A stretch of DNA of 64,000 bases from Chlorokybus atmophyticus (taxonomy: Eukaryota; Plantae; Mesostigma and Chlorokybus algae): contig RHPI01001037.1 of NCBI GenBank assembly GCA_009103225.1, positions 1,608,551 to 1,672,550 of the forward strand. Direction: 5' to 3'. Below are positions 3,227 to 55,965 of this stretch, in pieces (the first letter of the stretch is position 1; the number at the start of each line of letters is the position of its first letter). Under the pieces are notes generated by a model. That model saw only the letters and a list, made by a program, of their open reading frames with translations, was not told where the DNA came from and searched no databases. A program made the position numbers and the translations under genes.

Positions 3227-4300
3227 GCCTCCCACCACCGCCGCCGCCGCCGCCGCCGCCGTTCCAAGGACGACACCGTATCTCAGACACGGGTTAGCTA
3301 CAAGCTGTGTCCGAGGCACGATTGTAGTTCATTATGCACTCCCAAAATAGAATCAAGATTAGGGTTCCAAGCAATAGACTCCAATGTTTGTTGCTTGGCG
3401 GCGGCGGCGGCGGCGGCGATGGTGAGGCCATGGGGGAGCGCCACGTGGCAGGGTGGGGAGGGTGCGGAGAGGATCCATAATGCAGCGCAGGTGGCGCAGG
3501 CGGTGGATCTCGGCAGCAAGACTGTAGGCCATGCAACCGGCGACAGGAGCGGCCTGGCCAAGCTGCTGAAGCTCAAGGTCAGCTGCTTTGCTTTGCATTG
3601 TGTGTGTTATTTAGTTACAAGCGTGGCCTTTGTTATGCCAATGAAACAGCATTGAGGAGTCATGCTTGTTGTGACTTCATTAACCTTCATCCGTCCACTC
3701 GCAACAGTATGCCGCGGGTGAGCGAGCATACTTGTACTGTCTTTACTCACAAGCAACTCAAAGCAAACAGCCTTAATTCAGGAAACGTTTAGTTAATTGG
3801 TAAGTTAGATACACAAGCTACCAACTAGGTAACTCCGCAAGCAGGCAGGCCCAATGCACACAATACCACCGTTGAACACTTGTTGCTATTGCTGCTCTCA
3901 AATCAATGCCACATGGCAGTTGCTGTTTAACAGCCCTGGCATCAATGCTTTGGCGAGCGTGTTCATAGTAGTCACCACTTGCGTTCAAGGTATGACAGCC
4001 CCAATCAACAACGTGTCCTGGCCGAATCTTGTTGATGAGACGAATGTTGATTTGGATCGTCCTTGTCATCATTATATCATTGTTGTCAGTGTTGTCACGA
4101 GTGTGTTGAATGCCAGGTGGACATCTTTGCAGAAGAACTCCGAGTGGCCCGTGAGTTTAACGATGGTATGTGATTACACATGCATACAACTCAAACATGT
4201 TGAAGTCGATCAACACCTCCTGTTGTACTTGACAGTCATGAGCTTGTTTTGCCTGATGGGATGTTATTGTTTGTTGTCAATCGTTGAATACGTCATTGCA

Positions 4301-15909: not shown

Positions 15910-16060
15910 TGTTAAAAACGAGTAAAGTTACCGTGCAGCTTGCTGGAGGCCAAGCAGGGGACACCGACGCTGTAATGTAGCAGCGTGCGCGGGGGACAGC
16001 GAGGAGGGAAAATAATTGTGCAGTCCCCTTAGCTTGATGGAAAGTGGTAATCACTTAACA
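15910..16060 (-). repeat. Putative 3' LTR of the Gypsy element (151 bp)
   Basis: Begins TGTTAA immediately after the PPT and ends TTAACA (inverted termini). No second copy found in the window. Confidence 0.6.
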
Positions 16061-16107
16061 ACCCACCCCCCCACCCCCTGGTCATCGGCGTCCTCGCGTT
16101 GAGCTTG

Positions 16108-16290
16108 GCACCGTTGACAATGCCATGGTGGTGCCGCGGAGGTGGTGGCAATATCCGGGCCAAATGCCATGGCAGGTGTGACACCGAGGCTGCATGCTAA
16201 GTGCCAGTATTCACAGTAGGTGTCACACTCTTGCAACGGCTCAACGATGGAGGCGCACCCCGCTCTTCTCATGATACAAACCTGCGCGCG
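16108..16290 (-). pseudogene. PHD-finger remnant at the C-terminus of Gypsy pol
   Basis: QVC...CDTYCEYWHLAC...WHCQRC fits C4HC3 spacing with the first Cys lost; preceded by NCFSCHLP. Confidence 0.7.
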
Positions 16291-16399
16291 AGATTTTCCC
16301 AGTCCTTCGACATACGGGAGATGACAGGAAAAACAATTCTCCACGAGGTCGGTCACGAGGGCGCCTGAGGGTCACGCAGCGACAGGGTGCTTGGAGCGC

Positions 16400-17390
16400 G
16401 CACCTGAGCCACCTTGCAAAACACGCTGTAGTTGGCTGGGTCCAGGGTGGTGGTTTGCTTCCTGCAGTAAACGTGGTCCCCCCGATGGAACCTGCAAGTT
16501 TGAGGCACGTAGCTGCCGCTGCGTATGTTTTCATAACGGCGCTTGTCCCTGCGCTGCGCGGCCTTGAGGTTGGCCAGAGCAGAGGGTACCGCGGTCCTGA
16601 GCAGGTTGGCGCGGGCCGTCAGCACTTCCATCACGTGGGTGGGTTTGATGATGATGTCTTCAACTGCTTCGGTAGCATGGCGGACGCGGAAGGGGAGCAG
16701 TGGTTCCCTTCCGGAAGTATGGGTTGAAGGAGCGCAGTGCTGCTTGCTGAGTGCAACGGTAGCCGAGGGCAAGCCAAGGCAGGAACTCATCCCATTCCTC
16801 CCGCGGATGGGTGACGCAATAAGGCTGAAGGGCCTTTTTGACTGTTTGCACCTTTTTTTTTTCAAGCCCGTCAGCTTGTGGATGATCACGGCTGGTGCGA
16901 CGGTGATTAATAAGTGAGCGGTTGAAAAGGACGTCAAATGCCCCCTGAAATTCGGTGCCCTAGTTGGTGAGATGTTCTGTGCAGGCGCCGAACCTGCTGA
17001 GTATATGATCAAGGAAGACTTGCATCACTGTTGTGGCCGACTTGTCGGGCAGGGGGATAAGCTCAACCCACTTGCTGAAGTGTTCAATAGCGACGAGAAC
17101 GTACACGTTGCCACGGCGTGTGGTGGGCAACTCACCTGCCAGGTCCATGCTTCAGCGGTCAACGCAGACCCACAATGGAGAGAGGGTGCAGCTGGGGGTG
17201 GCGGTTTGAGAAGCTTGCTCGTATACGATCACAGGAATTACATTGCCTAAGTACGTAAGCGACGTTGCGCGTGAGCCCGTCCCACCAGTAGTCGCTGCGC
17301 ACCATGGCAGTGCGCTTCATACCGAAGTGGCCTACCTGGTGATAGAGGTTGGCGATGATAGATGCCCGTCGATGCGGCTGGGGCACCTAC
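16400..17390 (-). pseudogene. Gypsy integrase (HHCC zinc finger + DDE core)
   Basis: HQVGHFG..YWWDGL..CNSC; MDLAGELP..YVLVAIEHFSKWVELIPL..FG..TN*GTEF. Confidence 0.9.
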
Positions 17391-17519: not shown

Positions 17520-19063
17520 TTCAGATGTCTCCCTCGGATGCAAGAGGTATAGTGGCACGGAGCACGGGGTTGCGTGCTTCTGCGCGTATGCTCGCTGACA
17601 CGATCAACATAGCGTGCTGGTGGGGAGTGTCGCCGTCATAGCGCGCGCCGATGGTGTCCACAGTGTCGGGGTTGGGGTTGCGACTCAGTCCGTCTGCATC
17701 GGTATTGATAATCCCAGGCTTGTGCATGATGGTGAAATGATACTCTTGCAGCAGCAAGGCGCAGCGAGTGTGCTTGCCAGTCAACTTGTTGCTAGTAAAG
17801 AGCCACTGAAGAGGCTGATGGTCTGTAATTAATTTAAGCTGGTAACCGAAGAGGAATGGCCGAAAGAACCGAATGGCCCAGACATCTACAAGTTGCTCCC
17901 CTTCGTAGCTGCTATAATTGGCTTCAGCAGCGTTATTGGTCCGGCTGGCGTAAGCGAACTTGTTCCTTGCACTCGTCGTTTTTTTGGGTATAGCACGGCG
18001 CCTACTAGGCTAGTAGCCCAAGCCGACTCCAATCTGTGTGAAGGATGAATGGCTTAATGTAGTCGGGGTGCACTGAAGGTGGCTCTTGAGCACCTCGAAC
18101 GCTTGCTACTAAGATTCACCCCAATGTCCGGTGATGGCCTTCTTTAGCAGGTCGTTGAGAGGCTTGACTATCTTCAGGAAGTTCCGTACGAACCCACGTA
18201 GTAGTTGGATAAACCAAGGAAGGCGCGTAGCCGCGAGATGTTGGCGAGAGGTGGCACCTCCAGTAACGTGTCCACCTTTGCTTGCTGCACCATCACACCG
18301 TTGGGGACGATGAGGTGGCCGAGGTACGGGATCTTGTCAGCGAAGAAGGTGTCACTTCTTAGGGTGTGCCGTGAGGTTGTGTTCCTTCAGTTGCTCCAGC
18401 ACCTCTTTGATGTGCTGCAGGTGGGCCTTTGCAATGTGGCTGAAAATAAGGATGTCATCATTATAGCACCTTGAATTGTCCAGCCCGCGCAGGGTTCGGT
18501 ATAACGCGTTGAAAGACAGCCGGTGCGTTTTCCAGCCCGAAAGACATAACCTTCCACTGGTAGAGAGTCCGGTTGCCCCAAAAGGTGGTCTTGCACTTGT
18601 GGTCGTCTTAGATGCCGATCCAATGAAAATATGATCGCATGTCGAGGATTGAAAAATACTTACAAGTGCCCACGATGTTGAAGTTTTTGTCTTGCGTGTG
18701 CATACGATAGCAGTCAAGAACCGTGTGAGTGTTGAGATTACGGCAATCCCCACACATGCGCTGTGTCCACTGCCCCTGCTCGTCCCTCTTCAGTGGCATG
18801 ACGGTGGCCGCGGCATACCGAGTGCTGGGAGCTTGCTCCTCGATAAAACCAGCATCCAACAGCCTCCTGCAATTAGTCTCAATGACCTCCATTTCCACCT
18901 TAGCCACGGGATGCTGCTTGCTAAAGATAGGCCCGGTAGTGTCCAGCTCTATGGTAAAGTCGTGGAAGTTACACTTGCCCAAGTCCGTAAGGGAGTGCGG
19001 GAACTGCGACTTGTGACCTTTCGAGAGGGTTTTTAGCCGATCCTCAATGTCTCTAGAGGCCAT
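17520..19063 (-). pseudogene. Gypsy reverse transcriptase + RNase H
   Basis: RMCGDCRNLN, KYFSILDMRSYFHWI, YNDDILIFS (YxDD); RNase H FILHTDWS, YASR, NYSSYEGE, TDHQPL, LLQEYHFTIMHKPG..ADGLSR. Confidence 0.92.
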
Positions 19064-19249
19064 ACAACCGATCCTCCACCCTTCTTGCTATGGCTCGTCC
19101 GTTTGAGGGATGTCCAACGCTTCCTCAAGAGTTTCAAGATCGCTGTCGTCAACAGCCATTGAGACGATTACATTCCTGATTACTGCGAGATCTTCCCCCC
19201 CAGCGGATGGCGTGGGGCGGAGACCTGGCCATTAGCTGTGTTGCAGGGC

Positions 19250-20230
19250 CAAGCACGTTCTCAGAAGCCAAACCATGCTATTTTTATCTATTGCACGGCC
19301 CAGCAGAGCGCGATAATCGCGCTCCGCGAGCTTGGGTGCCTGTGAGACGACTCCGGGCCAAAAGCCCATGGCCAACTCGCGCTCAATGACGAGTGGCTTT
19401 GGAAGGCAGGCGCAGGTTGTCATCCCACACCATGCTAATATTGCCGTTGCAGAAGGAGTAAAAGCCAGGAAAGGTCACAAGGGCGGGCAAGGCATTCATA
19501 GGCTGACCCACCTTGTTGCTATAGTGGAGTGTTTGTTGTCCGGCTTGAGCACTGATTGCGGGGTAGTCACTAGGCACGGTGCCAGCAGCCAGGATATCGG
19601 TGACCAGGAGACCTAGAGGACGCGTGTAAAAGGGCTGCGCAGCGACCACGTTCTGTGCGTTGGCGAGGTTGGTCCACTTGCTGCGCGGTGCGCACGTGAG
19701 CCGCGTGCGGCTGCGTCAACGACCACTGAGTTGTCAATAACTGTACAAATGCGCTCGTAGTCAGCACGAACATTGGCGCGGTGGTCATCCTTTGCACGTA
19801 CATTCTCCAGTATGTATGCGGGCGGTCCGTCAAGTTGTTGTTGCTAAAGCGTGCGTATGACGCGCATCAACTCGCAAAACAGCTGCGATGGTGGGTCCTA
19901 AACTTTAGGACCTTGAAGGCCGAAACCTTTGCCGGCACGAGAATGCCCTTAACATTCCCACCCAGCAACAATAATGCTTACTCCACCTAGTGCTTTTAGG
20001 TGTTCCCCTGTGACAAGCTGAATGTCTTGAGGCAATGCGCGCAGATTGTCGGCAAGTACGGACGGCCTCATTAGCGGGTATCATTTGCGCAGGTGCGCGA
20101 GGTGATGAGACACCGCTGTTTATGCTTGTTGGCTGCAATTACAATTGACTACTTGCTAACTGGTAGGCCGACATTAAGGATGGCTGCCAAGCCGCTGCCG
20201 CCGCCGCCGAAAAGCTCCAGATAGTGGAGG
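19250..20230 (-). pseudogene. C5 cytosine DNA methyltransferase domain embedded in Gypsy pol
   Basis: Motifs in canonical order: I LELFGGGGSGL (20196-20220), LPQDI, IV IIVAGWEC*GHSRAG (Cys codon 19952-19954), V SQLFCELMRVI, VI YILENV (ENV at 19799-19807), VIII DAAARGSRAHR..WTNL (~19680-19720), IX/X ERELAMGF..RALLGRAID (~19290-19385). Stops and frameshifts present. Confidence 0.9.
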
Positions 20231-20759
20231 CCTTTATGACGACGTTGCGGCGACAGGTGAATAGTGGATAGCTCCAGTGTGCAAAGGGGGTCGTTGGTGT
20301 TGGGTGGCAGTGTCAGCGGTGTAGTTGCCACGCGTGTTGCCACGGTGTGTGCGTATTGCCGGTGAAGGTCGGGTTCTTGTTTTACAATTTCGCGTGGACG
20401 GGTAACCAATGCAGGCAGTGTTTTACCACGTACTCTCGGGTGGGTTGCTAGTTGCATGCGCAGCAGTTCCAACTCCTGTTGCACTGGAATGCCCCCCCCC
20501 CCCCCTTCCTCCAAGGGCGAGCGCACGGATGCCATCACAATGTGAAAAATAACTATCTACCCTATCCCCCCCCCACCCCACACACACACAAAAAAAAAAA
20601 ACGCAGCACTGACCAATGGGTGCGAACAACAGCGCGTACCCTCAAGCCTTAAGGTGTATGTCAAGACTTGAGGTGTGCTATAATCCTCCTTGGGAACGTG
20701 TGGGTGGTGTCGCAAGGGAGTAGTGATGTAAGGAACAACGCCGGCGGTGAGGGGATACT

Positions 20760-21140
20760 GGTATGAAGTGCGAAGGCGCAGAGGGATAGCAGCAGGGGTG
20801 CCATCGCCCTGGCGCCAGCGTAGTTGAAAAATGGCATGTTCTGTCCATGTGTTGTTGGCTGCTCCGATGGGGAACATTGCCTCCATGCCGATGACGACAT
20901 CAAATAACACTGAGTTGCAGATGAGACGGAAGACGCTCAGAACGGTAGTCTCGTCCTGAAGGTAGCTAGTAAAACGGAGGTATGCATTGGCGGGTTTCAC
21001 CTCGGGTTTTTAAGTGCGCCCTGAGCGGATCTCGTGTGATGCCTCGTTGAGATCCTGGTCGTTGATGCCCAAGCGTTCTGCAGCACGTCTTTTAAGGATG
21101 ACGGGGTGCGCGCCAATGTTAAACAAGACGTGACGTGGAG
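20760..21140 (-). pseudogene. Retroviral-type aspartic protease remnant
   Basis: HVLFNIGAHPVIL (decayed D-T-G-A, ~21110-21130) and downstream FDVVIGME flap-like motif. Confidence 0.7.
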
Positions 21141-22682
21141 CTCAAGGGTGGTTGGCAAAGGTGACGTGGCGTCGTTCGTTGTTGCCCACGCCAATGTTGG
21201 GCCGATACTCAAGCCTGTTCAGTGTGCGGGGTGGCCCCTAAAGGTTCGGTGGCAAATGGAATGGAAGGGCATGCCATCCCAATTGGTGTCAGCAACATTT
21301 TCTCCAGCAGTGCAATTGACACTGTCCGTGAGCCGCCCTCTCCGCCGGGAGATGGTGGTGAACTTGGTGCACGGGTCGAGGCGCTGGGCTGACTGGGCCC
21401 AGGCTTCGGTGGGTGGGATGTACAGGGTGGCGGCTATTGCCAATTGGAGTGCTTCCGCGGTGATAGCGCGCTCCCAATGGTGCGTGCGACGATCTTCGTA
21501 CATGGTTACTATCAGGATGATCGCATACATTCGGCTGCTGCCCAAGATGGCAGCAGCCTAATGTAGGCGATCATGAGAGCATTTAGCGTTGGAGAGGGGG
21601 GTGGGGTATATGCTGTCTTGCAGTGTATCCGTTGGTGGCCCCGTGTCTTTGAGAAGCTGTCCCTCCACCAGTTGGCAAAGGTCTCTTGTCTCTTCATCAT
21701 CCACATAGTGCTGCGTGGCTCTGGGAAGCTGCTGGTCATTAGTCATCGGGCATTCGTTCTCCTAATGGAAGAGCCGATACTCATCCGACAAATGTTGCTC
21801 AGTGGCAGTAGTTCGCTGGTAGGCCATCATGGTGGGAGGTAAGGACTACCAATAATTTGCGGCCCGGGTGAGTAGGAGTGGCATCCGGACAGTGACAAGA
21901 TCTTTGATCCATGCTTCGGGGCTAACGAACAGCCGTGGATCTATTGAGTGGCTGCGGTTGGCTAGCCAAAGCATGAGGCTCCTCGGGTCATTATCGGGGA
22001 TGCCGCTGCCTAGTGGTGCCAAGCTAATTTAGGGTCCCTCCTGGCGAGCCAGTTGCTCTTGAAGAGTTTGCAGACGGGAACGTACATTGATGAGATGCTG
22101 TCTAATCTACACGGGAGTTGTACTCCAGAATGGGCGGGGCAGAGAGGCAGATGCGAGTTGCCTCGAACGCCTTTCCTAGTCGAGACGGTGTGGGCTGGGG
22201 TTGCTTAACCCTATGCGTGGGTATCCCATGCGAAGAGTGAGCGTACTAAGCAGGGTGTCTTGGTGAGTGCGCTCCTGCGTGTCGCGGGAATGCGTGTCGC
22301 GGGAATTGGCGCCCTGGAGCAACTAGGTTTAATGAAACAGCCAGAGCTCACGCCGGATGCGACGCTCTTGCTGTGCCCAGGCGGTTGATGCTGCAGCGGT
22401 GGTTGGCTGCGGCAGTGGCGCCATGTTGCCTGTGATGCTCACCACGGGCGGCTAGAAAGAGGGCCTGGTGAAAGTCCTCTTCGTGAGGGGTAACTTCGCC
22501 CCAGTAGGTAAATATGTCATGTTAATCTGCTGCCGGCGTGCGGTATCCACAATGTGCGTCGGGGTGGCCTGCTGAGGACCTGGTGGGCGAGCACCCTCGT
22601 GTGCAAAGCCAGGCTCGAGCACAGCTAACCACGACGTTTTGCAAAGAAACGCTCGGGAAGGGGGGGGGGGGGGGGGGGGGGG

Positions 22683-23296
22683 NNNNNNNNNNNNNNNNNN
22701 NNNNNNNNNNNNNNNNNNNNNNNNNNNNNNNNNNNNNNNNNNNNNNNNNNNNNNNNNNNNNNNNNNNNNNNNNNNNNNNNNNNNNNNNNNNNNNNNNNNN
22801 NNNNNNNNNNNNNNNNNNNNNNNNNNNNNNNNNNNNNNNNNNNNNNNNNNNNNNNNNNNNNNNNNNNNNNNNNNNNNNNNNNNNNNNNNNNNNNNNNNNN
22901 NNNNNNNNNNNNNNNNNNNNNNNNNNNNNNNNNNNNNNNNNNNNNNNNNNNNNNNNNNNNNNNNNNNNNNNNNNNNNNNNNNNNNNNNNNNNNNNNNNNN
23001 NNNNNNNNNNNNNNNNNNNNNNNNNNNNNNNNNNNNNNNNNNNNNNNNNNNNNNNNNNNNNNNNNNNNNNNNNNNNNNNNNNNNNNNNNNNNNNNNNNNN
23101 NNNNNNNNNNNNNNNNNNNNNNNNNNNNNNNNNNNNNNNNNNNNNNNNNNNNNNNNNNNNNNNNNNNNNNNNNNNNNNNNNNNNNNNNNNNNNNNNNNNN
23201 NNNNNNNNNNNNNNNNNNNNNNNNNNNNNNNNNNNNNNNNNNNNNNNNNNNNNNNNNNNNNNNNNNNNNNNNNNNNNNNNNNNNNNNNNNNNNNNN
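22683..23296. other. Assembly gap flanked by poly-G
   Basis: Run of N. Confidence 1.
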
Positions 23297-24567
23297 GGGG
23301 GATGCTGTCTTGCAGCTGAGTCAAGCGATGCAGCCGAATGCAGGCACGTGATTGGATGCGCTCGCATACATAGCATAAAGGGTGCACTTCGCCGCTGTGG
23401 ACGGCCCGCAATAAGGACTCGAGGTGCTACATCTGCTGAACATATGCGCCAAGCTCAGCGGCGTTAGAGGGCATGTCACCAACTACTTGCTGAAGCAACG
23501 TAGCGTTCGCAGGCAGAGGGAGGTTGGCAACCACTGGCGCGGGCCGAGGTGGCGATGGCGGAAGCAGTGCGTCAGGATGGTGTGCGGCTGCTCGTGCCTG
23601 GGCGCTGGGCTAAGGATCTTCTTCCAACAGTGGGGCAGCAAAGTCCATGCTCAGTTGAAGAGCCAGGGGTTGGCCATTCATGAGGTCGTAGGCCACCATA
23701 CCATGGTTGGCCATGGTGATAAGCCACCATTGTGTTGACTAGAGATGCTGCATGCAACCATGCACAACAAGCATACACAGCACAGTGGTAAGAGCAGAGC
23801 TACACCGCCAACAAAGTGACTAGAGAACTAATTCAATGACACGCGGCCTGTCGGCTCTGGGCCCTCAGTCTGAGTCCTACTAAAGAGCAGACCAGACTGT
23901 ACCAGTCCTAACTGCCTGCAGTCTATACATACAACTGCGGTCTATGAGTAGCTTATCAAGTACCAGCGTAATAAGCTACAATAGGGCTAGCTAAGCTGAC
24001 TGGACAATAGCACATAAGTGTCACATGCTATACATGTAGAGAACACTGCATAACATGCTATATTCTTCACACTCCCACGCAGGCAGCTTGGCCAGCTCTG
24101 AATCTTCAAAACTTGGTCTTCTTTGTCTTCATCTTCACTGTCCCGATGCCCAGTCCTTCACAGCATGCCTTGAACTTCTTCACAGGCAGTGCCTTCGTCA
24201 TGAAGTCAGCCAGCATCTCCTCAGTGCCACAGAAAACAAACTCAATCTCTTTCCTCGCCACTTTGTCTCTCACAAAATGATGGTGCATATCAATGTGCTT
24301 GCTCCTCGCCAAGAGAATGGGATTCTTCAGTAGCTTCACTGCTCCTTGGTTGTCACAGCGCATCTCTATGCTTCCACATGGATGACCAAGGTTTCCTAGC
24401 AATTTCTTAAGCCACAATGCCTCCTTCGTCGCTGCTGTAGAGGTCATGTACTCGACTTCTGTAGTGGAAGCTGCCATTGTCGGTTGCAGCTTGCTGTTCC
24501 AGCTAACCACTCCACCATCCAGCTTGAATACATATCCAGTGGTTGACCTTTTAGAATCTAGGTCACC

Positions 24568-25101
24568 TGTCACAGCCCACTCGACCACAAAAGACTTGGT
24601 GCTTTTATGGTCGATTTGTGGTACTTTAATGTACCTTCCCGTTACATTCGCCCCCACTTAAGAACGCTGACGTCCTCGGCAGCTGGCGCCCATCAGCTGG
24701 GGAATCTTCCCAGGGGTCTGATTTTAGGGTCGGTCACCGGCCCCACCATCCAAGGACCGGCCAATTTAGGCCCATACCGGTCAGCGCGCGCATAGCGCGC
24801 CGCTGCCGGCCCCACAGGTCGCGTCACCGCAATAGGCAGGTCGCGCCCTGCCGCGCCAACTGAACTGGTCAGTTCGGCGCGACTGCCATTAGGCAAGTCG
24901 CGACCCATCGATGATGGCACTCATAAAGTGACCATTTACGATGTTATTGGATCAAGAAACAACGACCGCGGAATTCGTGTGCAAGGCAGGAATCGAACCC
25001 AGGTCTCAAGCTCCGATACCAATGTCACAGCCCACTCGACCACAAAAGACTTGGTACTTTTATGGTCGATTTGTGGTTATATAATGTACCTTCCCGTTAC
25101 A
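24568..25101 (-). mobile_element. TRIM (miniature LTR retrotransposon), 534 bp, inserted in Copia RNase H
   Basis: 79-bp LTRs 24568-24646 and 25023-25101 (TG..CA, 4 differences); TSD tcacc at 24563-24567 and 25102-25106; PBS TGGTATCGGAGC (25010-25021, tRNA-iMet type); PPT AAGTGGGGGCGAA; no convincing protein ORF. Confidence 0.95.
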
Positions 25102-25763
25102 TCACCAGCATAATCTGCATCACAATAGCCTTGCAACTCCTGGTTGCCCCGCCCATACTGGATGCCAACTGTTGCTGGACCTGACAAGTAGCGCAGTACT
25201 CCTTTTGCTGCCAACCAATGCTGCATTGTTGGAGCAGACATGTACCTTGGTAATTGTCCCACAGCATGTGCAATGTCAGGCCGAGACGCTATGGACAGGT
25301 AAAGAAGGCTCCCCACAAGCTTGCTGTAGGGATACTTTGCGTTATCCAGCTCTTTATCGTAATCCAGTGCTCTCACCAACTGAACTTCCACGCTCAGTGG
25401 CACCTCTCTGACATTCGCGTTGTCGAGACCAAACTTTGTCACCAGCTGCTTCACCGCTTGCTCTTGCGAAATGGTGACGGGTCCAGCAGCTCTATCTCTG
25501 ATGACAACCATACTTAAGAAGTATGTTGTCTCGCCCAAATCTCTGCATATAAACACAGCCTGCAGATGAGTCTTCACTCGCTGCACCCCTGACATTCCTG
25601 ACGTTGCAATCAGAATGTCGTCCACGTACACCAACAGCCACACTTGCTTGCTCTCGTGGTAGATCAAGCTTGGATCTGCCAAACTTGCAAACCCCTGCTT
25701 CTGGAGCTCCTTGCACAGTCTTGCATGCCACACCCGTGGTGCCTGCTTTAAGCCATACAATGC

Positions 25764-25885
25764 TGTAACGCGGGGCTTAACCGACTAAGCCATGGTAGCA
25801 AAAGTCGCTGCCATGAGAGGGTGTGTATTGCTTATTAATACTTCATAAGCCCTTCTTAGCCTATTCCACATTAACCGGCATTACA
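25764..25885 (-). mobile_element. Solo LTR, 122 bp, inserted in Copia RT
   Basis: TGTAA...TTACA termini; TSD aatgc at 25759-25763 and 25886-25890. Removing it restores ..RLVKA-LYGLKQAPR. Orientation inferred from internal motifs. Confidence 0.9.
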
Positions 25886-26531
25886 AATGCCTTCACCAAT
25901 CTGCATGCTGTACAAGGTGGCCCCTCCTGATACCCTCTTGGTTGCTGAATGTAGATTCTCTCTTCCAGCTCCCCATACAGAAACGCTGTCTTGACATCCA
26001 AGTAATGGAACTCCAGGTTGTCTGCTGACACAATTGCCACCATAGTTCTGAAGGTTGCCAACTTCCCTGCCGGTGCAAACACCTTATTGAAGTCAACTCC
26101 TTCTTGCTGCAGAAACCCCTTAGCAACCAATCTGGCCTTGTACCCTTCAATGTTGCCATTGCCGTCGCTCTTCACCTTAAACACCCACTTGCCAGGAATG
26201 GGCTTGACCCCTGCAGATGGAACTTCAAGTTCCCATGTTGCATTGGCATGCAGCGAGGCTATCTCTTCATCCATTGCCTTACGCCAACTGTCTGCATCAG
26301 TTCTCAGGAGTGCTTCTTCATATGTCGCTGGCTCCACACTCTGTGAATCTGAGCCCGCCATATAGCCAAACTCCTTATGGAAACGAACAGGACCCTTCCT
26401 GTCGCGCCTTGGATAATGCCCCCTGCCTTGCTGTTGGTTTTGCTGCTGATATTGACTTCTCTCATCTCTGCGCGCAGCGCTGGTCACTGTCATAGGGCTG
26501 AGCTCCCTTTCTGAATCAGAACCACTGTCCC

Positions 26532-26703
26532 CTTCCTTGATAACTTCTCCAAGCTGTCATTGGTGCGTCCTGTGAAGCTCAAGTCAGATGTCCCAACTGT
26601 GGTGAAAGAGGTGGTACTGTGGTTGAAGAATGTGTCTGGTAAATGTGTGAAGACAGTCAAAAGTGACGGAGGAGGGGAGTACCTGAACAAGGAGCTGTCT
26701 GCA
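26532..26703 (+). pseudogene. Copia integrase-core fragment inverted relative to its element
   Basis: Plus strand reads FLDNFSKLSLVRPVKLKSDV..GKCVKTVKSDGGGEYLNKEL while the flanking gag and RT linker read on the minus strand. Confidence 0.85.
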
Positions 26704-27788
26704 TTTTTGATCCTTAATTTTGCCTTCAACAGGATTGGCAAAATCTCTTTGAGGGACAACTTCTGATTTGTGCTGATACCTCCAACATGATCACAACAAT
26801 CTCAAAACTCTCGCGGCAACCCAGACAACACATTCAAGCACAGATCATCCTCTGAGACTGAATCTCCTATAGAGGTCAAATCATTTCTGAGCTTTTATGC
26901 ACGTCCCAAATACTCTATAACTGTCTCACTAGCAAGCTATCTCATGTTGTTCAGCGCTTGCTTGAGCTCAATCTTACGACCAATAGAGCGTGTAGAGAAC
27001 ATATTTTCCAAAGCTTCCCATGCATGCTTGGCATCAGATTGCATCTGTAGCAGTGGCCTACGAAATGGCTCAACGCGCATACTCATCAAAGCCAAAGCAC
27101 GCAAACTGCTTCGCATCATGCAGACTCTTTACCAATTGGCGCACTCTCCTTTGGGTCAGCGTAGTCCCACAGCTCTTTGTAGATGAGCTTCATCTTCATC
27201 TCAAACCTCCAGCTGGCGTAGTTGTCATCTCCTAAAAGTTTGATGGTGAACTTCTCCTTCTCTGATCTAGTGGTTGTCATCCTGCTGTCTCCTGCTGGCT
27301 GAACTTCACAGCTAAACCCCACAGTCCTCCTGCTTGCTCGCTGTACCTCTCAGACTCTCAGCTTACAGCTCCAACATCCTCACACACAGAGGAGCACACT
27401 CTCTCACAGTAGCTAGCTCTACACACGTAGATGTGGGCCCACAACCTGTTGACTAGAGATGCTGCATGCAACCATGCACAACAAGCATACACAGCATAGT
27501 GGTAAGCAGAGCTACACCGCCAATGAAGTGACCAGAGAAGTGAATCAACTCAATAACACGCGGTCTGTCGGCTCTGGGCCCTCAGTCTGGGTCCTACCAA
27601 AAAGCAGACCCAACTGTACCAGTTCTAACTGCCTGCAGCCTATACATACAACTGCAGTCTATGAGTAGCTTATCAAGTACCAGCTTAATAAGCTACAATA
27701 GGGCTAGCTAAGCTGACTGGATAATAGCACATAAGTGTCATATGCTATACATGTAGAGAACACTGCATAACATGCTATATTCTCCACA

Positions 27789-29400
27789 CATTGCGCAAAA
27801 TTGTGGAGGCGCCCCCGAGTTTTGTGGTTTTGTCTTGCCGGACGTAGATGCCTTTAAGTACGTCTCGAATAATACGGTCCTTGGCATTCACAAGAGTGTG
27901 GAGCCGTTGTTGCAAGTGCGCATTAAGTGGAGCGTCGTTGGGGACGAGGTGAACTCGCTGTGCCATCTCTTGCACCCTTGCGGTGACAGGTAGTCAAGTC
28001 CTACCACATCCTCCGCGCGCAGGACGGGGTCCAAGACATCAGCTAAGAAGGGGTTGCGCTAAATGACCTCAAGTATTTGGAGAGCCCAGCGCTCCACGTT
28101 TCCAGGACTAGGCCATACATGTGGCCGTGGTGCCTCCTAAAGTTCGTATCGCAGCCGGGGCTGAAACTTTTGCTCCCGTGCTGCCGCTGTGGGGATTGGT
28201 CCACCTCTTGCGATTTGACGATGTTCCCACTGCAGAGTTGCCCGAAGATCCTCGTAGCAATCAACGGCTGCGTCCCATCGTTGTTGTGCACCATGCTCTT
28301 CTTGAGTGAGAGGGAGATGTCTGGTGCTTAGGCGGGGTGGTCGGCAGCGGCTGAAGAAACGGAGAGGTGCGGGGCCAAGTGGTGGCCGAGCGAGTCAGGG
28401 CCAGACGATGCTGAATGAGCCTTCGTGACCAGTTTATCTCCTCCCTCATCCGCTGCCCAGCTTCGATGATGTCGGCTAGAGTGAGCATTCAATAAAGTGC
28501 ACTGGGTAGAGTAAAGAGAGGCAGGTGGTTGGGCAACTGTTTTAGGCGATCGCGCAAGGGCTGTTCCGTTGTTGTGTTTGGCGGATTTGGTGGCGCCACC
28601 TACACCTTTCAAACAAGAAGTGTCGGGTGTTCAGTGATCCATGCTCGCAGTGCCGCCTCCTCATCTGGTTCAAGGTTTGTTTTTTTCAGTAGACTCGTGC
28701 CAACTCCGTGGCAAACGGGAGGGACGGCCAGCCACATGTCCGTCGTCTTAAGGCAACTCCTGTGGTTGTTGTTGCATACGACCAGAGGGCAGCTTGCGGG
28801 CCCTGACTAGCACTTGCCAACGTGCTTGCTTGAGTGCCCAGAGTTGAGCATTGCCTGCCACATCATGCCGAAGTAAGTCTGCTAGCGTGGGTGGTGCGGG
28901 TGCCGCCGGGTCAGCCACTAGCGGTGCCTTTAAAGGCTCCACACGCTGATGCTGTGCAGGAGGGGACTTCGATTGGTCACGCTTAGGGGGTTAAATGCGG
29001 CCTAAACGGGTGGTGGTACCCATGAAACTTCGTAATTGCGCGAAGCATGCAGCTAGGTTTTCACAATTGACGAGATCCTGCAACTCGTCTGAACGGCTGC
29101 GAAGGTCCTCAATCTGTGCGAGAAGCTCGTCATTCTCTCCCTGCAGGTCGGGTGCGCCTCTAATGACGAAGGCTACCTTGACGGCTTTGCCCTTCTGCTT
29201 GATATTGGCCTGACCAGCCTTCACTCCAATTGCTGCCCAATGTGCCGTGTAGCATGTGCGATATTCATCCTCCGTGCCCTTCAGCATCGCGTGAAGCTCA
29301 TCCATCGGTGCTGTGAGGGCAGCAACCACCTCTGTGTTCTCCGCAACAGGCGCCTTGCGGGCGGCGTTGCCTGTCGTGGATCCACCTTGGTGGTTCTGTT
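27789..29400 (-). pseudogene. Decayed coding sequence of unknown domain content downstream of gag; continues across the Copia into 23297-23732
   Basis: Protein-like minus-strand frames with scattered stops (ELLAQIEDLRSRSDELQDL; LTLADIIEAGQRMREE); the Copia TSD shows the two flanks were contiguous. Confidence 0.45.
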
Positions 29401-31000
29401 TTTATTTCGGAGGGTTGTTCTTCCTCCGATAGCCGTTGTTGGCTGGCTCCTTGCCCTTGTTGCCGTTGTTGTTGTTGTTGTTGTTATTGTTGTCGTAACC
29501 ACTGCTGCCATCGTAGATGCCTGAGGGTCTCAACTCAGGGTGCTTGGCGTAGCAGACTGCCTCCAAGTGTTTGGTCTGGTGGCAGTGGTCACACACCAGG
29601 TTCCCGTACTCCTCCATGCAATCCTTCTAGTAGTGGCCGTGTCGACCACACCGATGGCAGACGACAGGGGCGGGTAGTGCAGCGTGAGCTGACTTCGCAG
29701 GAGATTTGGGTGTGCGGATGGGATAAGACTTGCGGTCACGTTGGCTGGGGTCTGGAGCAGAGGCATGAGCATATGAGGGATCAGAGTTCATATCCAACAC
29801 TGCTCTCATCCACACCTGGCGATCATGGATCGCTTAGGCTGTTTCAAAAGCTTGAAGCAGCGAATACCCTTGTGGTCGGATATTGTTGAGAGCGTTGTCC
29901 ACCGTCTTGTTCAATGGAGGCTTCAGTTGGCTGACGAACACCACGGCGGCAGCTTTGTCGCTGAGGATCTTGTAGTTGGTGTCCTTTAGCAGCTTGACCA
30001 TACAGGTGCAAGTGCGCAGAAGATCCTCCCCTGCTTTACACATGAAGTGACGCAACTCCTCCACCTGCTGACTGGTCTGTGGTGGGAATGTGCGCCGAAG
30101 CGCCAGATACAAGTCCTGTAAGGGTGACAACGTATGGTCCACCCTGACGGTGAGGGCGGGTTCTTGCATGCTGAAAGAGCATAAAGACAGTGAACTGCCT
30201 GCAACCATGTCACGACTTCCCCGCGTCCTTGTCCGGATTGGAGTATCAAGTACGGTGACGCGTTGTCGTGCTTGTGCTTCCTCAAGCGCAATTTGTTGCT
30301 CTGCCATTAGCCTGAACGCCAAAAGTTGCACCTGGGACCGGCGTGCTTGTTGTGCTGCCGCCAACTCGCGGTCGACCAATGCAGGATCAACCGGTGGTAT
30401 ATCTGCTTCAGCTGTCAACTGCGCTGCGGTCAAAGCTTCCGTAAGGGTAGGGCCTTGCAGTGGGGCAGCTGGAACCATGGGCTTGGCAGGGACGCCAGGA
30501 GTTGATACTTCATGGGCAGAGCTCCGCTGCCGGCCAGAACTCCGTACCCTCCAATCTCATGCTGTGCAGCAACTGACTTATATATACCTCATGTGCCTCG
30601 TGGTCTAAGCAAGTTGCAGCCATGCGAGGACACATTACATCTGACCAGTTGGGAGTCTTGATTGCATGGTAGCTCATCCTGGAATCCAACTTGATGATCC
30701 ATTCGTCCAGTGGTGTTGTGCAAGGACGCCCGGAGAAGGTGAGACCATGAGTGGAACCGGATGCCTCCATATCGTCGATGTGCAGCTGATCGATGAAGCT
30801 TTCAACTTGATGAGACAAGACTTAGTATGTCTAAAACGGGGTACTAATGAAGACCGGGGGCTGTCGCTGTTGTCGTCGCCCTCTTTTTCCGTAAGATAGG
30901 TTCGAGCCCAACCAGCTGTCGAAGTCGCTGGTGATCTCCTCGGCCACAGGCGAAAGCCCGTACCGATGAGTGAACTCTCCGACTGCTGAAGACTCACTCA
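29400..31000 (-). pseudogene. Retrotransposon gag with two CCHC zinc knuckles
   Basis: FSGRPCTTPLDEWIIKLD; LRRTFPPQTSQQVEELRHFMCKAGEDL; CHRCGRHGHY*KDC and CDHCHQTKHLEAVC at ~29550-29660. Confidence 0.75.
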
Positions 31001-31735: not shown

Positions 31736-32780
31736 CTAGCCGGGGTCGAAGTTTGAAAATAGGCATGGCTCATCAACAGGGTTTCTAATGCTGGTAGCAC
31801 AGAAACGACGCCTGGCTGTAGGCATCAACGAGGAAGTTGGCCCCTCCTGGACCGCTAGCGTGACAGGCGTGTTTGCCAGGTCAGTCTTAACGTGCTTGCG
31901 GAGATTCCTCTTGAGGTTCTCCACATGCACAATGGCCAGGTGCTGAACATTGACAAGGGGCATGCCGCAAAGTGGTCTCGTCGCCCAGCCTGACGACGCC
32001 GCGCTCGTAGAGCTGGATAGGCGTTTCTTTGTGCTTTTGCCTAAGCTGGATGAGCTCCTGCGCCTTTTCGGCAGTGTAGGCCGCATCGCACACTGTCCAT
32101 ATATCGGTCATTGGACTCACAACTGCTTGATATCAATCCTTATACCATAACCACTAGTACACCAAGGACTTAGCCATTTTAAGCTGACCGATCTTGTCCA
32201 TAATATGCACCTTACAATGCAACTATGCAAGCCAACTTCTAACAGTACGCGACGCGCTGCTCCCAGTGTCAGTGTCCTCTGTGTGAGAGGGAGTGGTTTT
32301 TCGTGGAGGGCGCAAGACCACTCTTGGCGCCACGATGTGAGCGCGAGGAGCGCTAAGTCTTTGCGCTCCTGAGATGGCCGGGTCAAGGTTAGAGCTGAAG
32401 CGGAGAAGCTTCTCGTATTTGAGAAGGTCGTGTGCAACTTTGTGCCACACGGCTGCAGCGACGTCATCCAAGTAGTCAGCTGCAAGACGGAACTTCTGGT
32501 GATTATTTCAGTTGTTAGCTCGAGTCTTCACGGTAAGGACGATGGAGTTGAAGCGGTTGATCCATTCCCTCAGAGATGGAGTTCGCAGCTCCAGTGAAGA
32601 CGAGCTTCCGATTGCCGCTGCTGCTCCAACTATTGTTGCGGTTGCCATATATGGCAGCCATGGTTTCTTCGCTGACTGAATCGAGGTCGACGAGGAAAGG
32701 AAGACAGTAACTCGCAGCAGTAAGTGGGTTGTCAACACCCACTTCGTCAGCTGTTGGAGAGGAAGAATCTGGGGTGACAT
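31736..32780 (-). pseudogene. Second gag-like remnant
   Basis: REWINRFNSI and AQELIQLRQKHKETPIQLYER resemble the retrotransposon gag LxQ..E...Y..R motif; frames broken. Confidence 0.5.
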
Positions 32781-34782
32781 CCGTTAGGGATGTAGCCGAC
32801 TCAGCCCGCTTTGGGCCTTAAATGACCTTGCTTTGCGTGCTCCCCAGCTGAGTCCTTGACTCATGTGAGGCATGCACACCGCGCGCAAAGAGCACGAACA
32901 ATGCAAATGCGAGTGCACAATATCAAAGCAATGACTAAGCGCCGTGGAGTGAGTTGCAAGTCAACAAGCTCCTGAACAAGAATGCTTGCAGAATGCACAC
33001 AGCAGTCACGTTGTGTATGTGTGCGGGGATGGGTAGCTAAGACGAGATCACACACTACAAGTTCCGAGCGTCAAATGCATGCAATCACAGTCACAATTGA
33101 ACAGTGAGTGGGGTGCAAGCAAGCACTGCAGCACTGTAGGGATGCATGTAGCAAATGCGATGGCCATAAGCATGAGAGCAAGAGTATACACTTACAAGTG
33201 TACATGCAAAGGTAGGCCTGGGGGAAGAACGCTGTCTGTCGGAGTAGCTGGCACGCTAACAGCGCATACACAGCTATCATTGAACTACTTGTACTGCTGA
33301 GCTCCACTTCACTGAGCCTCGGTGCTCATCGGCTTCAAGTGGGCCAACTGGTCAGTCTCGGGCAGTGCCACCGCCGCTTCTGCTCAAGTCCGTCTACTTG
33401 CAACTCATTGCCGACACTTCTGGCGAGAGTTGCCTAAGTTGGGTGTCAACGCGGCCCGCCACAAGGACTGCGTCCCTATTGGTGGAGGCATGTGTTGGCA
33501 ATCGGCTGTCACGCGGCCCGCCAACAAAAGGGCTGCGTTCTGATTGGCAAGGCTGGGGGCCCGCAGTTTGGGCATGGATTGATCGATACGGATGTTATCA
33601 GGGTGACACTGGTGTGTGATGAAGTGCGAGGGGGAAGTGCGTGTCGAGGGTCAGCACCGTGACATGCATGTTATATATCATATGTTATCATCATTGCGAG
33701 CTCAATATAGCTCGGTATAAGCTTGTACATGTTTATGCATGCATTTATACATGATTTTACGCATCATATGTTGGCTTATTGGCGTCTGTGATATTCCGTG
33801 TCAGTGGTGTGTCTTCTTGCATAAAGGGGGCCTCCCTTAAAATTATAAATATAAGTATCTGTAAGTCTTATATAAGTCATCCCATGCACTTCCCGCGACC
33901 TTAACTCAAGCTCAGCTTACTCTTGACCTTAACCCACCAATACATGTGTGCGCGCGAGTTAAAGCACAACGTCTATTACTAATATCAAGCAACCGATGAA
34001 GTGTTGAGGTTTAGCGTGCTTAAGCATCACGCAATGCAATGTAGGAAATAATAGCACACGCTCTGACAATTATCACATCTCACAACCGCAATCATAATTG
34101 CAACAATAATAGAGTTGTCTTCTCTACATCTATGTCTTCTCCAAGAGTTAACTTCTTATTAATTTGGCCGGTCTTGTAATGCATGGCCACCGGTGGCCAG
34201 CTTATTTCTTGCCCCTTTCAGACGGGTTCACTTTGCCGTATGCAAGAGAGCGCCTCAAACACATTAAGGGTCTGAATGTGCAGACCCTTCTGTCTTAGGT
34301 GGGGCTCAGCCCCTTCCCACATCTTAGGCAACAAGCGGTGGTATCTGTCAAGCTCCTCAGCCACAGATAGTGGGCATTATGTGCCGATTTCGTTGCACAC
34401 TGACTAAAATTGCTAGATACTCTACCTACACACCTATAACTACTACACCCACCATCTCACCTAAGCGACTATCCATGCCAAAGCCAGTATTTGAAACGTG
34501 CGCACGCCCACATGCTAGCATGCGTGTGCATGGCGTGCATGCGTACGTGCACACTGCGAAGTCCGCTGAGTGGCGCAGCAAGCACACATTATCTGCGAGT
34601 AATCTAACCCACAAAAGCATTGACTTCTTACACTGCATCCGTACATTCACAGGAGATATACCATAAAACTACATCAATGCTTTTACACATCAACATCATG
34701 TGTCAGAGCGACATGCACCAAGGTATCTGTCGCAAACGTCGCAACATCTTCAGCATTAGCATGTCAGCATTTATAGAATCCC

Positions 34783-34980: not shown

Positions 34981-35147
34981 CCGCTATACACCAGTAATTG
35001 TTGAAAGGCAATCTGATTGTAGCCCTACCTCCCATTATACTGCAATGCGCAGCGTCTCTCAAGTTGGTACTGCAACTGACTGACACTGCTCCAGCACATG
35101 ATGCTCTACAGTCAAGTGGTTGCTTGCTAGCTCTACTAATACTACCG

Positions 35148-38100
35148 CTATGCAAATGCCAAAGCCTCCTTCTGTTGCAGCTTCAACCTCCACTTATTTG
35201 GTTGGAATACCCTGCAGAAACATATCACATCACACCACTTCTAACCACTCTGGACTTTCATTTGACCGTCATCATCACCAATTATCACCAAAATTGAAGT
35301 TCATCTTACTTGAAAAAACCGCCGCGGTCGTTACGCTCAACTCTCTCAACACTCCCATCCTCGCGCGTGATCTCAGCAACAACAGCTTCCGAGCCATCCC
35401 CCACCGTAACCTCCTCGCCAGCGCTGTCCAGCAGCCGGACGCGGGCATGCTCCACGCCCTTGGCCACCACGCCAATAGGCGCCCGCCACCTCGTATTGTA
35501 CTCCACTAACAACTCATCCTGAAAAGAGGGAGAATATTCATCGAGGAATAAATGAGGGTTGTGCTGAAACAAGGAAGGTGGAACCTGACTACAAAACCCA
35601 AGACGCTCAAGTCTAGATTGACTGTTAAGTTGCAGTTTAGTTGCAAATGGGCTCAGTACCAGTTGCGAGCAGACATAAAGCATGTGGTTGGTTTTTTAAA
35701 ACACAGATACACATTGGGTTCAGGCTTCTTACCTGAAGGGCGAGCATGCAGGAGGGACCAGCGGGGAACCACATGACGCCTTCAATGTTCTCTCCAATGA
35801 TGGAGCACTCGGTACGTCCGCAGAGGTAACCTTTGGAAGGGTCGCAGAGGAGCTCATCAACTGGGACGATGGGGGATGGAGGGTCGGGCGAGCCGAACTC
35901 GTGATGAAGGTCTAGTCTCAAGCGCGGGGCATCATCGTCGTGGTCCAGCGTGTAGACCTCATAGCCAGTCTCGATGATCTTCAGCACCCGCGAGTGCCGC
36001 TGCCCGTCCTTTGTGCACTGCCCTATCACTCCTGTCTGTACGAATGCACACCTGCACAAACCGAAGAGGGAAGAACAGCAGTTGTACAGATCAATAACCT
36101 CTGCATTGCGGCTTGCCCGGTCGGCAGGACAATAACAACATCGGTTACCTTCCTTCGGTGACTGAAATGGAGTCAGCGTAGTTATGTGACAGGTGGTAGT
36201 GTCCACTAAACCAAAGCGAAATCTAAGACATGAGAGTCAGCCACTAGCAATGGTGCTGGGTTGTTGAATACACGAGCAAGCAGCAACCACCCTGCCCTTA
36301 CCTGCGGGTTTTCCTGCACAAGCTTGATAAAGGCATCTGCGTCGTCGTCTGTGTGGTTGAGAAATGCGCATCGGTTGCGCACGTGAACCTGCACAATGGT
36401 TGAGGGGAATCCACACAAGCACAGGTGCGTGTCAATACACCACTGCTATACCTGATGCAGCACGCGAAGACCGCAGCCAAGGGGCGGCGCATGTGTAAAC
36501 ACGATGATTGGCACACCCTTGTTGTGCGCAAGCACGGTGCGGAACCACTCCACCTGCTCATCATCCACGAACACCTCGTGGACAGAGAATCGGTTATCGC
36601 GAAAGCGCACCGTGCTCATGCCGACAAGAAGGGCCGGGCCCACTCGCGCCGACTGTGGCATACAGTGTCGACGGAGTCAACATGTAATCAGGCGAGCACA
36701 GCAGCGTGTGAGCAAGTGCACTCAACATATGTGTATGCACATGCGTGCGTGCACGCATGTGTGCACGTGCATAAGTGCTTGCGCGCGTGCATGCCCGTGT
36801 ACAAGTCAGCGTGCCTGTGTGCACGTGTCTGCGCGTGTGTGTGATTGGGCGTACCCAGTAGTGCCTGTCCTGGCCAAATGCTGATCTCCAAGCCGCCAAG
36901 TTCTCGGCATCAGTTGCAAACTCGTCACCCTCAAGGTCATGGTTACCTGCGAGGATCTGCCTTAATCTCTCGAAATGTTGCATTAAGTATGCTAGAGTGA
37001 CGATTGATCACCAACCTGTGACCAGGAGGTAAGGGGACTCAAAGGAGTCAAGAAACTTTTTCGCCTCCGCAAAGCACTCGCGTGACCCTGGCCGGTGCGA
37101 ATAACCGCCCAAGTCCCCAAGCTGGACCACCCGCTTTGCTACTGATGAAGCACCCGCATTGGTGTTGTCTATTGCCTGAACAACATAGCGTGAAAGGAAA
37201 GCCAATACATAGATCGACTTGACACTGCTCTGCAAAGGTAGCATGCAGCGAGAGTGCTCTTAAACCTTGTTGAGTTGCTGGCGGGCGGCGTGGAAGAGGT
37301 GCATTTGCGCGGGTTCCAGGTGCAGGTCCCCAAGAATCGCCACCATGGCCAATGCCGCGCTCTTATCATTGCTACCGACTTGTCTTGCCTCAAAGCGGCG
37401 CTCTGCATGGCTTCTTGATTTTGTGTATGCACGTGAACTGGTATGCAAAAGAATGCACCTCAACTAGCTTCTTGCTATCAACATCACTGCCACTCGCAAC
37501 AGCTTACCAGCTTCCATCTGTGGTGGCTCAAGGTTAGAAAAGCCATTGGCGGACACGCTGCGCACAATGGCCAGCTGATGTTACATGCAGGATGGATGAC
37601 CTGAACAGAAAGTCGCAACGCACATGCATGCACGGATCGCCAGAGGTTCAGCATGCACATTGTGATAGTGAGCATACGCAAGTGGACACTACAACGCAAT
37701 GTGTGCTTAGATGTGTCAATGAGAGGTGGCAGGAGAGTCCACATCCATAAGCTGCGTGACACAACATTACGTACTGTCAACAAGCCTCACAGCACTGGCA
37801 AATAAGCAATGACGTGCGTGTTTGTCACACTAGCTCGTACCGTGCAGCAAGTACTCACTTCAAGCAAGTCACATGCTCAAGCAACATCGTAAGATGCAGG
37901 ACCACGACAGGTGGCCATCCCTTACCCGCTGTGATGGCTGTAGTTGTTGTTATCGGGTTGATTGATGATATCATGCACAGCAGCAGCCGTCACGGCAGCC
38001 ATGCCCACCACCGCCCCCTTCCCCGCGCCCCTCCTTCCCAACCTCAATGCCAGGCTGCTCCTCCCCCAAGCCTCACATCCAACCCCTCCGCCCGCCTTAC

Positions 38101-38176
38101 GCACCACCCTGGAGGACCAGGCAATCGAGCAAGTGACCAATGACGACGCCGGTGTTGCCCCCACCGCCGCCGCCAT
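35148..38176 (-). CDS. Calcineurin-like metallophosphoesterase, multi-exon, with probable organellar transit peptide
   Basis: All five MPP metal motifs in order: AILGDLH, QLGDLG, TG|NHDLEG, FTHAPP, WFSGHYH. C-terminal exons TGVIGQCTKDGQRHSRVL and VFQPNKWRLKL..FA* (TAG 35148-35150); ATG 38176. Confidence 0.88.
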
Positions 38177-38776
38177 TGTCGTCACCGCCTAGCCTGCTAG
38201 CGTAGACTGCCACGCTGGAAGCATAGCTTAACGTATGCCCAGCGCTGTAGGCATAGGCGACGGGATCAGCGGCCTCGTCGGCGGCGGTCGGGGCTCTGAG
38301 CGCAGTTGGCGTGGTCGGGAGGTCAGGGTAAGAGCCAAGTGAGTATTGAGCTTTGCTCAGAGGCCCAGCTCACTGTATGCACAGTTTCCTTGGTGAGAAT
38401 AGGGGAGTATGTCAGATTGACGAGTTGTGTTGATGTTCTCCTTGACCGTTCAAACAAAGCTTGCTACATAATCTGTGCCTGTGGACATCAACACCATTGC
38501 GTGCTGCACTGTTGGAGCAGCTTTCTTGTGTGCGGCCTATCGCAAACATGAGAAGTTCACTCTTGCACTTGGTTGATACGGTTCTTGCATGATGTGCAAA
38601 GTGTTGTACATACAATCCAAGACATCAACACCTGCTGATAGCAAGCGCATGCTTGCTGGAAACTGCACATCACAGATAAGGTCCTACACAACATCGCCAT
38701 CTGATTAGCTTCTCTGTATACCTTTGAAAGAGATGCGAACACTGGTAGACAGCAGAGCGCATGGCTGCTGCTTAAC

Positions 38777-40953: not shown

Positions 40954-41127
40954 CATATGCTTGGTACATGTCGTATGGGTACACCCGGCATCATGTACCA
41001 GCATCAATGGGGCCTCTGGACCAGATCATGGTCGGTTAAAGTAGAGCCCCCCCCCCCCCAAGACTATCCGGCCAGCGTGGCATGCTAGGAGTCCACGCTG
41101 GCAGCCTGGGCTAGGGCGATTGCGGCG

Positions 41128-42881: not shown

Positions 42882-42960
<79 letters not shown>

Positions 42961-50175: not shown

Positions 50176-50260
<85 letters not shown>

Positions 50261-50406
50261 GTACGCTGGAAGTTCTCATCATTAAACTTTTTGCCGTAGA
50301 TGCTCTGACCTCCAGTACCCTGTTGCGAAGCATGTCAGGACTAGCAGCATTTCCAAATTGCACCGCCTTGCGCAACATTGCACCACATGAATGAGCGTAC
50401 TGGGGC
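50176..50406 (-). repeat. Exact copy of a cyclophilin exon/intron fragment plus (GA)n
   Basis: 50260-50406 is identical to 55021-55167 ([18 protein letters not shown] exon); directly follows an N gap at 50161-50175. Confidence 0.9.

Positions 50407-53879: not shown

Positions 53880-55965
<2,086 letters not shown>

Follow-up and report, generated by a model that had tools for sequence, protein, structure and literature searches.

Retrotransposon-borne C5 cytosine methyltransferases (DNMTs) have been described in Symbiodinium and Klebsormidium, as the sequence-only reading of the present DNA had stated, and according to the main text of the 2018 report only the Klebsormidium element, KnitGypsy-Dnmt3, is a Gypsy element, the Symbiodinium ones being LINE and DIRS elements (PMC5890265). 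In the same text, de Mendoza et al. describe the acquisition of the enzyme as having taken place "in the K. nitens lineage". The available part of PMC12344493 restates this Klebsormidium result, and the available parts of PMC11982613 and PMC7027972 hold nothing on DNMT-bearing Gypsy elements. A 2026 preprint, in its accessible text, sets a further group of elements, the EpiLTRs, apart from Gypsy-DNMT3, which it still assigns to streptophytes (bioRxiv 10.64898/2026.05.21.726589).

The window analysed here (the whole 64,000-nucleotide stretch of Chlorokybus atmophyticus DNA) holds a decayed element of this already published kind, so the locus alone is no discovery. Its value is that it leads to a large family which, as far as our searches reach, is known in print from Klebsormidium only. 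Our literature search, for which subscription papers were mostly beyond coverage, found no DNMT-bearing Gypsy element reported for Chlorokybus, Closterium, Marchantia or chlorophytes, and no report of chlorophyte members with the DNMT between RNase H and integrase. The weight of the results lies in the breadth of the family, its two slots for the enzyme and a probable read-through switch, more than in the window locus.

A broken methyltransferase inside a decayed pol

Positions 20226-19249 of the minus strand hold a broken DNMT3-like C5 cytosine methyltransferase domain inside a Ty3/Gypsy pol. Pfam, tblastn and family profiles give the domain order of the element as Gag-PR-DNMT-RT-RNaseH-INT-PHD, and its parts are as follows.

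28850..30950, minus: gag with a CCHC zinc knuckle; family Gag profile at 30127-29530 (E 1.7e-23), outer limits read from the sequence
23733..27788, minus: younger Copia element between gag and PR; LTRs 92% alike, target-site duplication CAATG
20877..21228, minus: aspartic protease (PR), decayed, two stops, NIG replacing DTG; profile match 21141-20877 (E 1.4e-6), tblastn of P0025, P0018 and P0034
20227..20876, minus: PR-DNMT linker, with a poly-T/GT/poly-G tract at ~20560-20610
19249..20226, minus: DNMT domain of pol, five stops and three frame changes; Pfam, family profile and three-frame reading
20226-20142, minus: DNMT piece 1; family profile E 3.7e-3
20155-19684, minus: DNMT piece 2; family profile E 6.7e-44, 142.6 bits
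19688-19418, minus: DNMT piece 3; family profile E 3.8e-15
19408-19249, minus: DNMT piece 4; family profile E 3.3e-11
18974..19248, minus: DNMT-RT linker, frame shared with DNMT motifs IX-X and RT; stops at 19234 and 19090 (TAG CAA GAA)
18198..18973, minus: reverse transcriptase (RT), broken; Pfam RVT_1 E 8e-8, family profile 18973-18348 (E 5.8e-53)
17736..18123, minus: RNase H (RH), broken; Pfam RT_RNaseH E 2e-18, family profile
16377..17386, minus: integrase (INT), broken; H2C2 17386-17212, core 17157-16719, C-terminal part; family profiles E 3.5e-21 and 1.4e-55
16075..16368, minus: decayed PHD finger at the pol end, a weak match; family PHD profile E 0.006, tblastn of PHD-bearing relatives to 16075-16108
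15910..16079, minus: candidate PPT and 3' LTR; purine-rich 16079-16062, then TGTTAA...TTAACA 16060-15910

The motifs on which the sequence-only reading was built (I, IV, VI, VIII and IX/X) all lie where it had placed them on the minus strand: motif I LELFG at 20220-20206, motif IV GWEC at 19963-19952 with a TAA stop as the next codon at 19951, motif VI ENV at 19807-19799, motif VIII as RAHR at 19696-19685 followed beyond a frameshift by WTN at 19676-19668, motif IX ERELA at 19384-19370 and motif X LLGRA at 19306-19292. The domain keeps the catalytic Cys, ENV and the first motif-VIII Arg, the second motif-VIII Arg being lost at the frameshift. That reading had proposed a search against the Pfam profile DNA_methylase (PF00145), in which the central piece alone (P0001, stops read as X) scored 22.3 bits (E 1e-4), above the Pfam cut-off of 22 bits. 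With a family profile built from relatives, the four collinear pieces correspond to profile positions 3-321 of 322, and the top score among 20 shuffles of the same DNA was -0.9 bits, as against 142.6 bits for the real DNMT piece. Family profiles bear out the collinear placement of PR, DNMT and RT on one strand. The window pol (21228-16075) has 18 stops among its 1662 codons together with 12 frame changes; this copy of the element is dead, as had been noted.

The gag is most likely that of the DNMT element itself, judging by order, strand and family; P0025 and P0020, among the top tblastn matches of gag, are leading matches of pol too. At the other end, the Pfam scan gave no match for the PHD finger of the window pol (16075..16368), and window self-searches found no 5' LTR partner of the candidate 3' LTR and no repeat pair of any kind for this copy of the element. 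Leaving aside the Copia element, the gag-PR interval has ~3 kb (21230-23732 and 27794-28800) that gave no match in Pfam or in the relatives' protein set; it contains stretches that look coding, a gap of 614 N and, at 21517-21574, a hairpin of 58 nt. Within the Copia element, an 80-nt direct repeat (24568-24647 and 25023-25102) lies between RT and RNase H and suggests a solo LTR or a small insertion. In one DNA sequencing run (share 0.07), fragments of related copies at 80% likeness fell over INT, RT and gag, with almost none over the DNMT.

Several observations concern the rest of the window. An LTR-like stretch on the minus strand (32730-33664, ends TGTCA...TGACA), followed by a decayed gag-like frame from ~32661, has no match to the ends or proteins of the DNMT element. 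A large diverged inverted duplication pairs 35004-38208 with 41090-44237 (73% over 2.4 kb), and an identical 231-nt duplicate (50176-50406 and 54937-55167), next to N gaps and long runs of (GA)n, is probably an assembly artefact; the gene that holds it we take to be a cyclophilin. On the plus strand, 47441-48358 is an intronless frame of 305 codons with a weak Pfam Pkinase match under the cut-off (E 2.5e-5). A 74-residue exon of a serine-racemase gene (1781-2002) is 99% identical to EukProt jgi/Chlat1/4532/Chrsp29S00335, its next matches, at ~50-55%, being from chlorophytes.

The DNMT is part of pol and not a later insert, because intact relatives carry it in frame in the same slot, the DNMT tree parallels the RT tree, and there is no target-site duplication on its flanks. 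Intact relatives, whose existence had been surmised, were found (for example P0006, P0018, P0020 and P0025), and they have the enzyme inside a Ty3/Gypsy pol between protease and RT, as claimed for the window. Gag, PR, DNMT and RT lie in a single ORF in P0006, P0012-P0016, P0018, P0020 and P0025; in P0006 this ORF extends to RNase H, and its alignment to the window is unbroken across DNMT, linker and RT. Homology with the relatives' linkers spans both DNMT junctions of the window: the last ~130 nt of the PR-DNMT linker share homology with the linker that precedes the DNMT in relatives (tblastn of P0023, P0029 and P0041 to 20346-20373), and the last DNMT piece is in frame with RT. Divergence is similar in the two domains, window identity to P0025 and P0018 being 41% for DNMT and 39-41% for RT. 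Patristic distances in the DNMT and RT trees are correlated, Mantel rho being 0.68 over all 90 elements, 0.77 over the 24 with the window's domain order (layout A) and 0.44 over layout B (p 0.001).

That a gene fragment, or a bacterial or phage piece, was inserted separately and later into this pol is highly improbable. It would be consistent with the phage C5 methyltransferases, 167 records of which match the N-terminal part (~43%) of the domain at 27-33% identity, with phage enzymes being the nearest Atlas clusters (0.96), and with the simple-sequence tract in the PR-DNMT linker. Against it, a tree with phage and viral outgroups places all 52 retroelement DNMTs on one side and the 13 phage and viral ones on the other (SH-aLRT 98), and linker homology covers both junctions. 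The sequence-only reading had named a target-site duplication, or absence of the domain from other copies of the family, as signs of such an event; the sequences flanking the window DNMT share no common word of 7 nt or more, hence no target-site duplication, and the relatives' common slot and frame refute a later insertion into this copy.

Breadth and layouts of the family

The search with P0001 yielded 7 relatives among 863 candidates, and that with the DNMT of P0006 yielded 69 proteins among 7400 candidates. A search of 50% clusters returned 128,894 matches, a total that is not a count of DNMTs because the profile also spanned integrase and PHD columns; among the 144 new proteins listed from it, 122 have the DNMT and 22 do not. 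A scan of metagenome DNA gave 54 loci, of which the 37 long matches were analysed (L031-L067) and 17 short ones, probably prokaryotic, were excluded. The metagenome loci read Gag-PR-DNMT-RT-RH-INT-PHD, with ordinary LTR pairs in L036 (94% alike) and L058 (92% alike). No Klebsormidium-named sequence was among the family matches found.

Domain maps of the relatives fall into three layouts. Layout A is the order seen in the window, Gag-PR-DNMT-RT-RH-INT(-PHD), and its named members are from Closterium. Layout B is RT-RH-DNMT-INT-PHD, with the chlorophytes Monoraphidium neglectum and Hariotina reticulata as named members; in P0060 (Monoraphidium), P0100 (Hariotina) and 64 further proteins the DNMT lies between RNase H and integrase and retains its catalytic residues. 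Layout C is Gag-PR-DNMT followed by a stop, and the Marchantia protein P0008 groups with its branch. The earlier suggestion of a possibly lineage-specific family does not hold, as the same slot is found in Closterium and Marchantia and the other slot in Monoraphidium and Hariotina.

RT and DNMT trees were built from 90 elements in which both domains were well covered, all as quick searches with SH-aLRT as the only support. One branch of the RT tree (SH-aLRT 99) separates the 24 rows of layout A from the 66 of layout B. The DNMT tree, built from the same rows, unites 21 of the layout A rows in one group (90) and leaves three A rows with long branches outside. By path length, the rows nearest the window are P0018 and P0025 in both 90-row trees, whereas in two other trees, one of them with the phage outgroup, they are those of the Marchantia-containing layout C branch. 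The window always falls on the A/C side, and in the 90-row DNMT tree and the phage-outgroup tree no supported set holds it. Because most members are metagenome proteins, the link between slot and host lineage rests on four named genera and the window.

From the sequences we tentatively propose, as a reading that is possible but a little short of probable, that a DNMT3-like enzyme was captured a single time, before the chlorophyte/streptophyte split, by a Ty3/Gypsy lineage with a PHD finger, which has kept it since. The lineage would then have moved the enzyme within pol (to the PR-RT slot in streptophytes and the RNase H-integrase slot in chlorophytes) and put it before a leaky stop in the Marchantia-containing branch, many members coming to have a Glu-Cys rather than a Pro-Cys active site. 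Chlorokybus is a streptophyte placed in a class of its own, and if the single early capture is true its copy would testify to it from the deepest branch of the streptophytes.

Active site, probable read-through and proposed role

The domain appears DNMT3-like by sequence and by the predicted fold of the relative P0093, with phage enzymes matching at a similar level. Compared with solved methyltransferases in the PDB, the relative P0010 matched DNMT3B/3A best (E 2e-5, as against 0.045 for M.HhaI), and so did the family profile (E 3.5e-22). The AlphaFold model of P0093 (pLDDT 80, pTM 0.78) was matched by Foldseek to DNMT3A with E 1.3e-15 and a TM-score of 0.79 by target length.

Of 161 aligned domains, 155 conserve the catalytic Cys and 157 the ENV Glu; the two Arg of motif VIII are found in 156 and 152 of them, and the motif-I Gly in 145. 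The residue before the catalytic Cys is E in 85, P in 62, S in 6 and D in 4. The sequence-only reading had singled out E in place of P at this position of the window copy; the E is present, but it is not peculiar to this copy, and since it is the commonest state of the family the EC motif of the window is not decay. The catalytic residues are kept in E-type and P-type members alike, and each of the two main clades of the outgroup tree contains both types, a pattern more in line with a substitution that is tolerated than with a single loss of function. Pairwise dN/dS of the DNMT was 0.10-0.13 in three pairs among L031-L033 and 0.14-0.24 in four unsaturated pairs with L036, three L034 pairs being saturated; it was 0.14-0.15 for PR and 0.02-0.03 for RNase H plus integrase (one pair measured). 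The DNMT is under purifying selection in L031-L033 (dN/dS <0.2); the dN/dS values are all from P-type relatives and not from the window copy.

A stop of the form TAR-CAR-YYN (TAG or TAA) is present in the DNMT-RT linker of 23 of the 25 metagenome loci that have both domains, and it divides Gag-PR-DNMT from RT-RH-INT-PHD (among L031-L034 and L035-L061). The sole in-frame linker stop of L031, L032, L033 and L034 is TAG CAG TTA, TAG CAG TTA, TAG CAA TCA and TAG CAA CCA, respectively. As 19 of the 23 are near-copies of one family, they amount to about four independent lineages; the RTs of the leaky-stop loci form one branch (SH-aLRT 93). UAG-CAR-YYA is described, in the text available, as the TMV-type read-through signal (PMC2754532), which L031-L034 resemble in their in-frame TAG-CAR-YYA between DNMT and RT, with the difference that their stop comes after Gag-PR-DNMT and not after Gag. 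From this stop context, read-through at the linker stop is likely. If it occurs, Gag-PR-DNMT would predominate over RT-INT, the minor product, and the DNMT would be as abundant as Gag. Our literature search found no report of a leaky stop after a retroelement DNMT. We do not equate the TAG CAA at 19090 of the window with the leaky stop of the family, because 3 of the 18 window stops precede CAR, the third codon is GAA, and the nearest intact relatives, P0018 and P0025, have no linker stop. A separate observation concerns L066 (440-8752), an apparently intact element with 127-nt identical ends, whose single in-frame TAG GGG, at 3365-3367, lies upstream of the DNMT, on the other side of the domain.

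In LTR elements generally, Gag-Pol domains enter the particle and are freed by PR, and fusion to Gag-Pol is the usual route in. We somewhat favour the reading that in live family members the DNMT is active, travels in the virus-like particle and methylates the element's own cDNA before integration. On the pattern of general Ty3/Gypsy biology, the enzyme would be packaged as a Gag-Pol domain and cut free by the protease, would meet the new cDNA in the particle and would mark it there, and the C-terminal PHD finger would target integration. The mark would most likely make the new copy resemble host chromatin, or keep it quiet until inherited. The observed/expected CG ratio is 0.86 in the window pol and 0.95 in the DNMT, as against 0.81 in the host flanks and 0.50 in the Copia element; the window pol is not depleted in CG, so no footprint of self-methylation is visible in it. 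The ratios of relatives, figures that come without a host control, are 0.26-0.85.

This absence of CG depletion would also suit a domain kept for binding or structure, as a cDNA or RNA chaperone or a shield against host nucleases or deaminases, with E-type members being poor or dead enzymes. The replacement of P by E in 85 of 161 domains points the same way, as does the K. nitens Gypsy DNMT, which according to the main text gave no methylation in yeast, a result its authors call inconclusive; isolated SymbioDIRS-Dnmt3 domains are reported there to have carried out de novo CG methylation in yeast (PMC5890265). No assay of an E-type member, the type that makes up over half of the family, was found in the literature. 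We nevertheless regard a non-catalytic role as improbable, given that E- and P-types alike retain Cys, Glu and both Arg (152-157 of 161 domains) and that the mixture of E and P in both main clades suits a tolerated substitution. Another reading is an active enzyme whose main target would be host chromatin or other copies, for self-limiting silencing or the marking of insertion sites, rather than particle cDNA. A PHD finger at the pol end would tether pol products to chromatin, and the leaky-stop branch would make the DNMT in large excess over RT and integrase, beyond the need of one cDNA per particle; but Gag-Pol fusion leads into the particle, and abundance would suit particle loading as well, so that we consider this target unlikely.

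The long retention of intact catalytic residues is an argument that methylation is of importance to the retrotransposition cycle. Intact members of E-type (such as P0025 and P0012) and P-type (such as L031 and P0060), two domain orders and the likely read-through switch provide material for learning what a transposon-borne DNMT does, and family members occur in the tractable hosts Marchantia, Closterium and Monoraphidium.

Comparison with described elements

The EpiLTRs of Cymbomonas and Euglena resemble the present family in being Ty3/Gypsy-like and in joining a DNMT to a chromatin reader, one of them in a green alga. As described in the accessible text of the preprint, their DNMT groups as sister to DNMT4 and is accompanied by a Dam adenine methyltransferase and by a chromodomain (bioRxiv 10.64898/2026.05.21.726589), whereas the chromatin reader of the family studied here is a PHD finger. 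Pfam scans of 20 relatives, full-length ones included, found neither Dam methyltransferase nor chromodomain, and the domain spacing of the window pol leaves no room for either. The window element, with neither Dam nor chromodomain, is not an EpiLTR.

SymbioDIRS-Dnmt3 and SymbioLINE-Dnmt share with it the retrotransposon-borne C5 methyltransferase, and the Pol of SymbioDIRS, by the main-text account, likewise includes a DNMT3-type domain, in either of two domain orders. Their backbones are DIRS, with a tyrosine recombinase, or LINE (PMC5890265), in contrast to the Ty3/Gypsy backbone with a DDE integrase found here.

The closest system is KnitGypsy-Dnmt3, compared here by its main-text description. 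It too comes from a streptophyte alga and is a Ty3/Gypsy element whose Pol ORF includes a DNMT3-related domain, and its catalytic residues are kept with Ka/Ks <0.2, as in the present family. It is reported to have DIRS-like repeats, whereas in the relatives L036 and L058 the LTRs form ordinary pairs. The Chlorokybus copy is dead, and its relatives span chlorophytes to Marchantia, as against the K. nitens lineage of the published account (PMC5890265).
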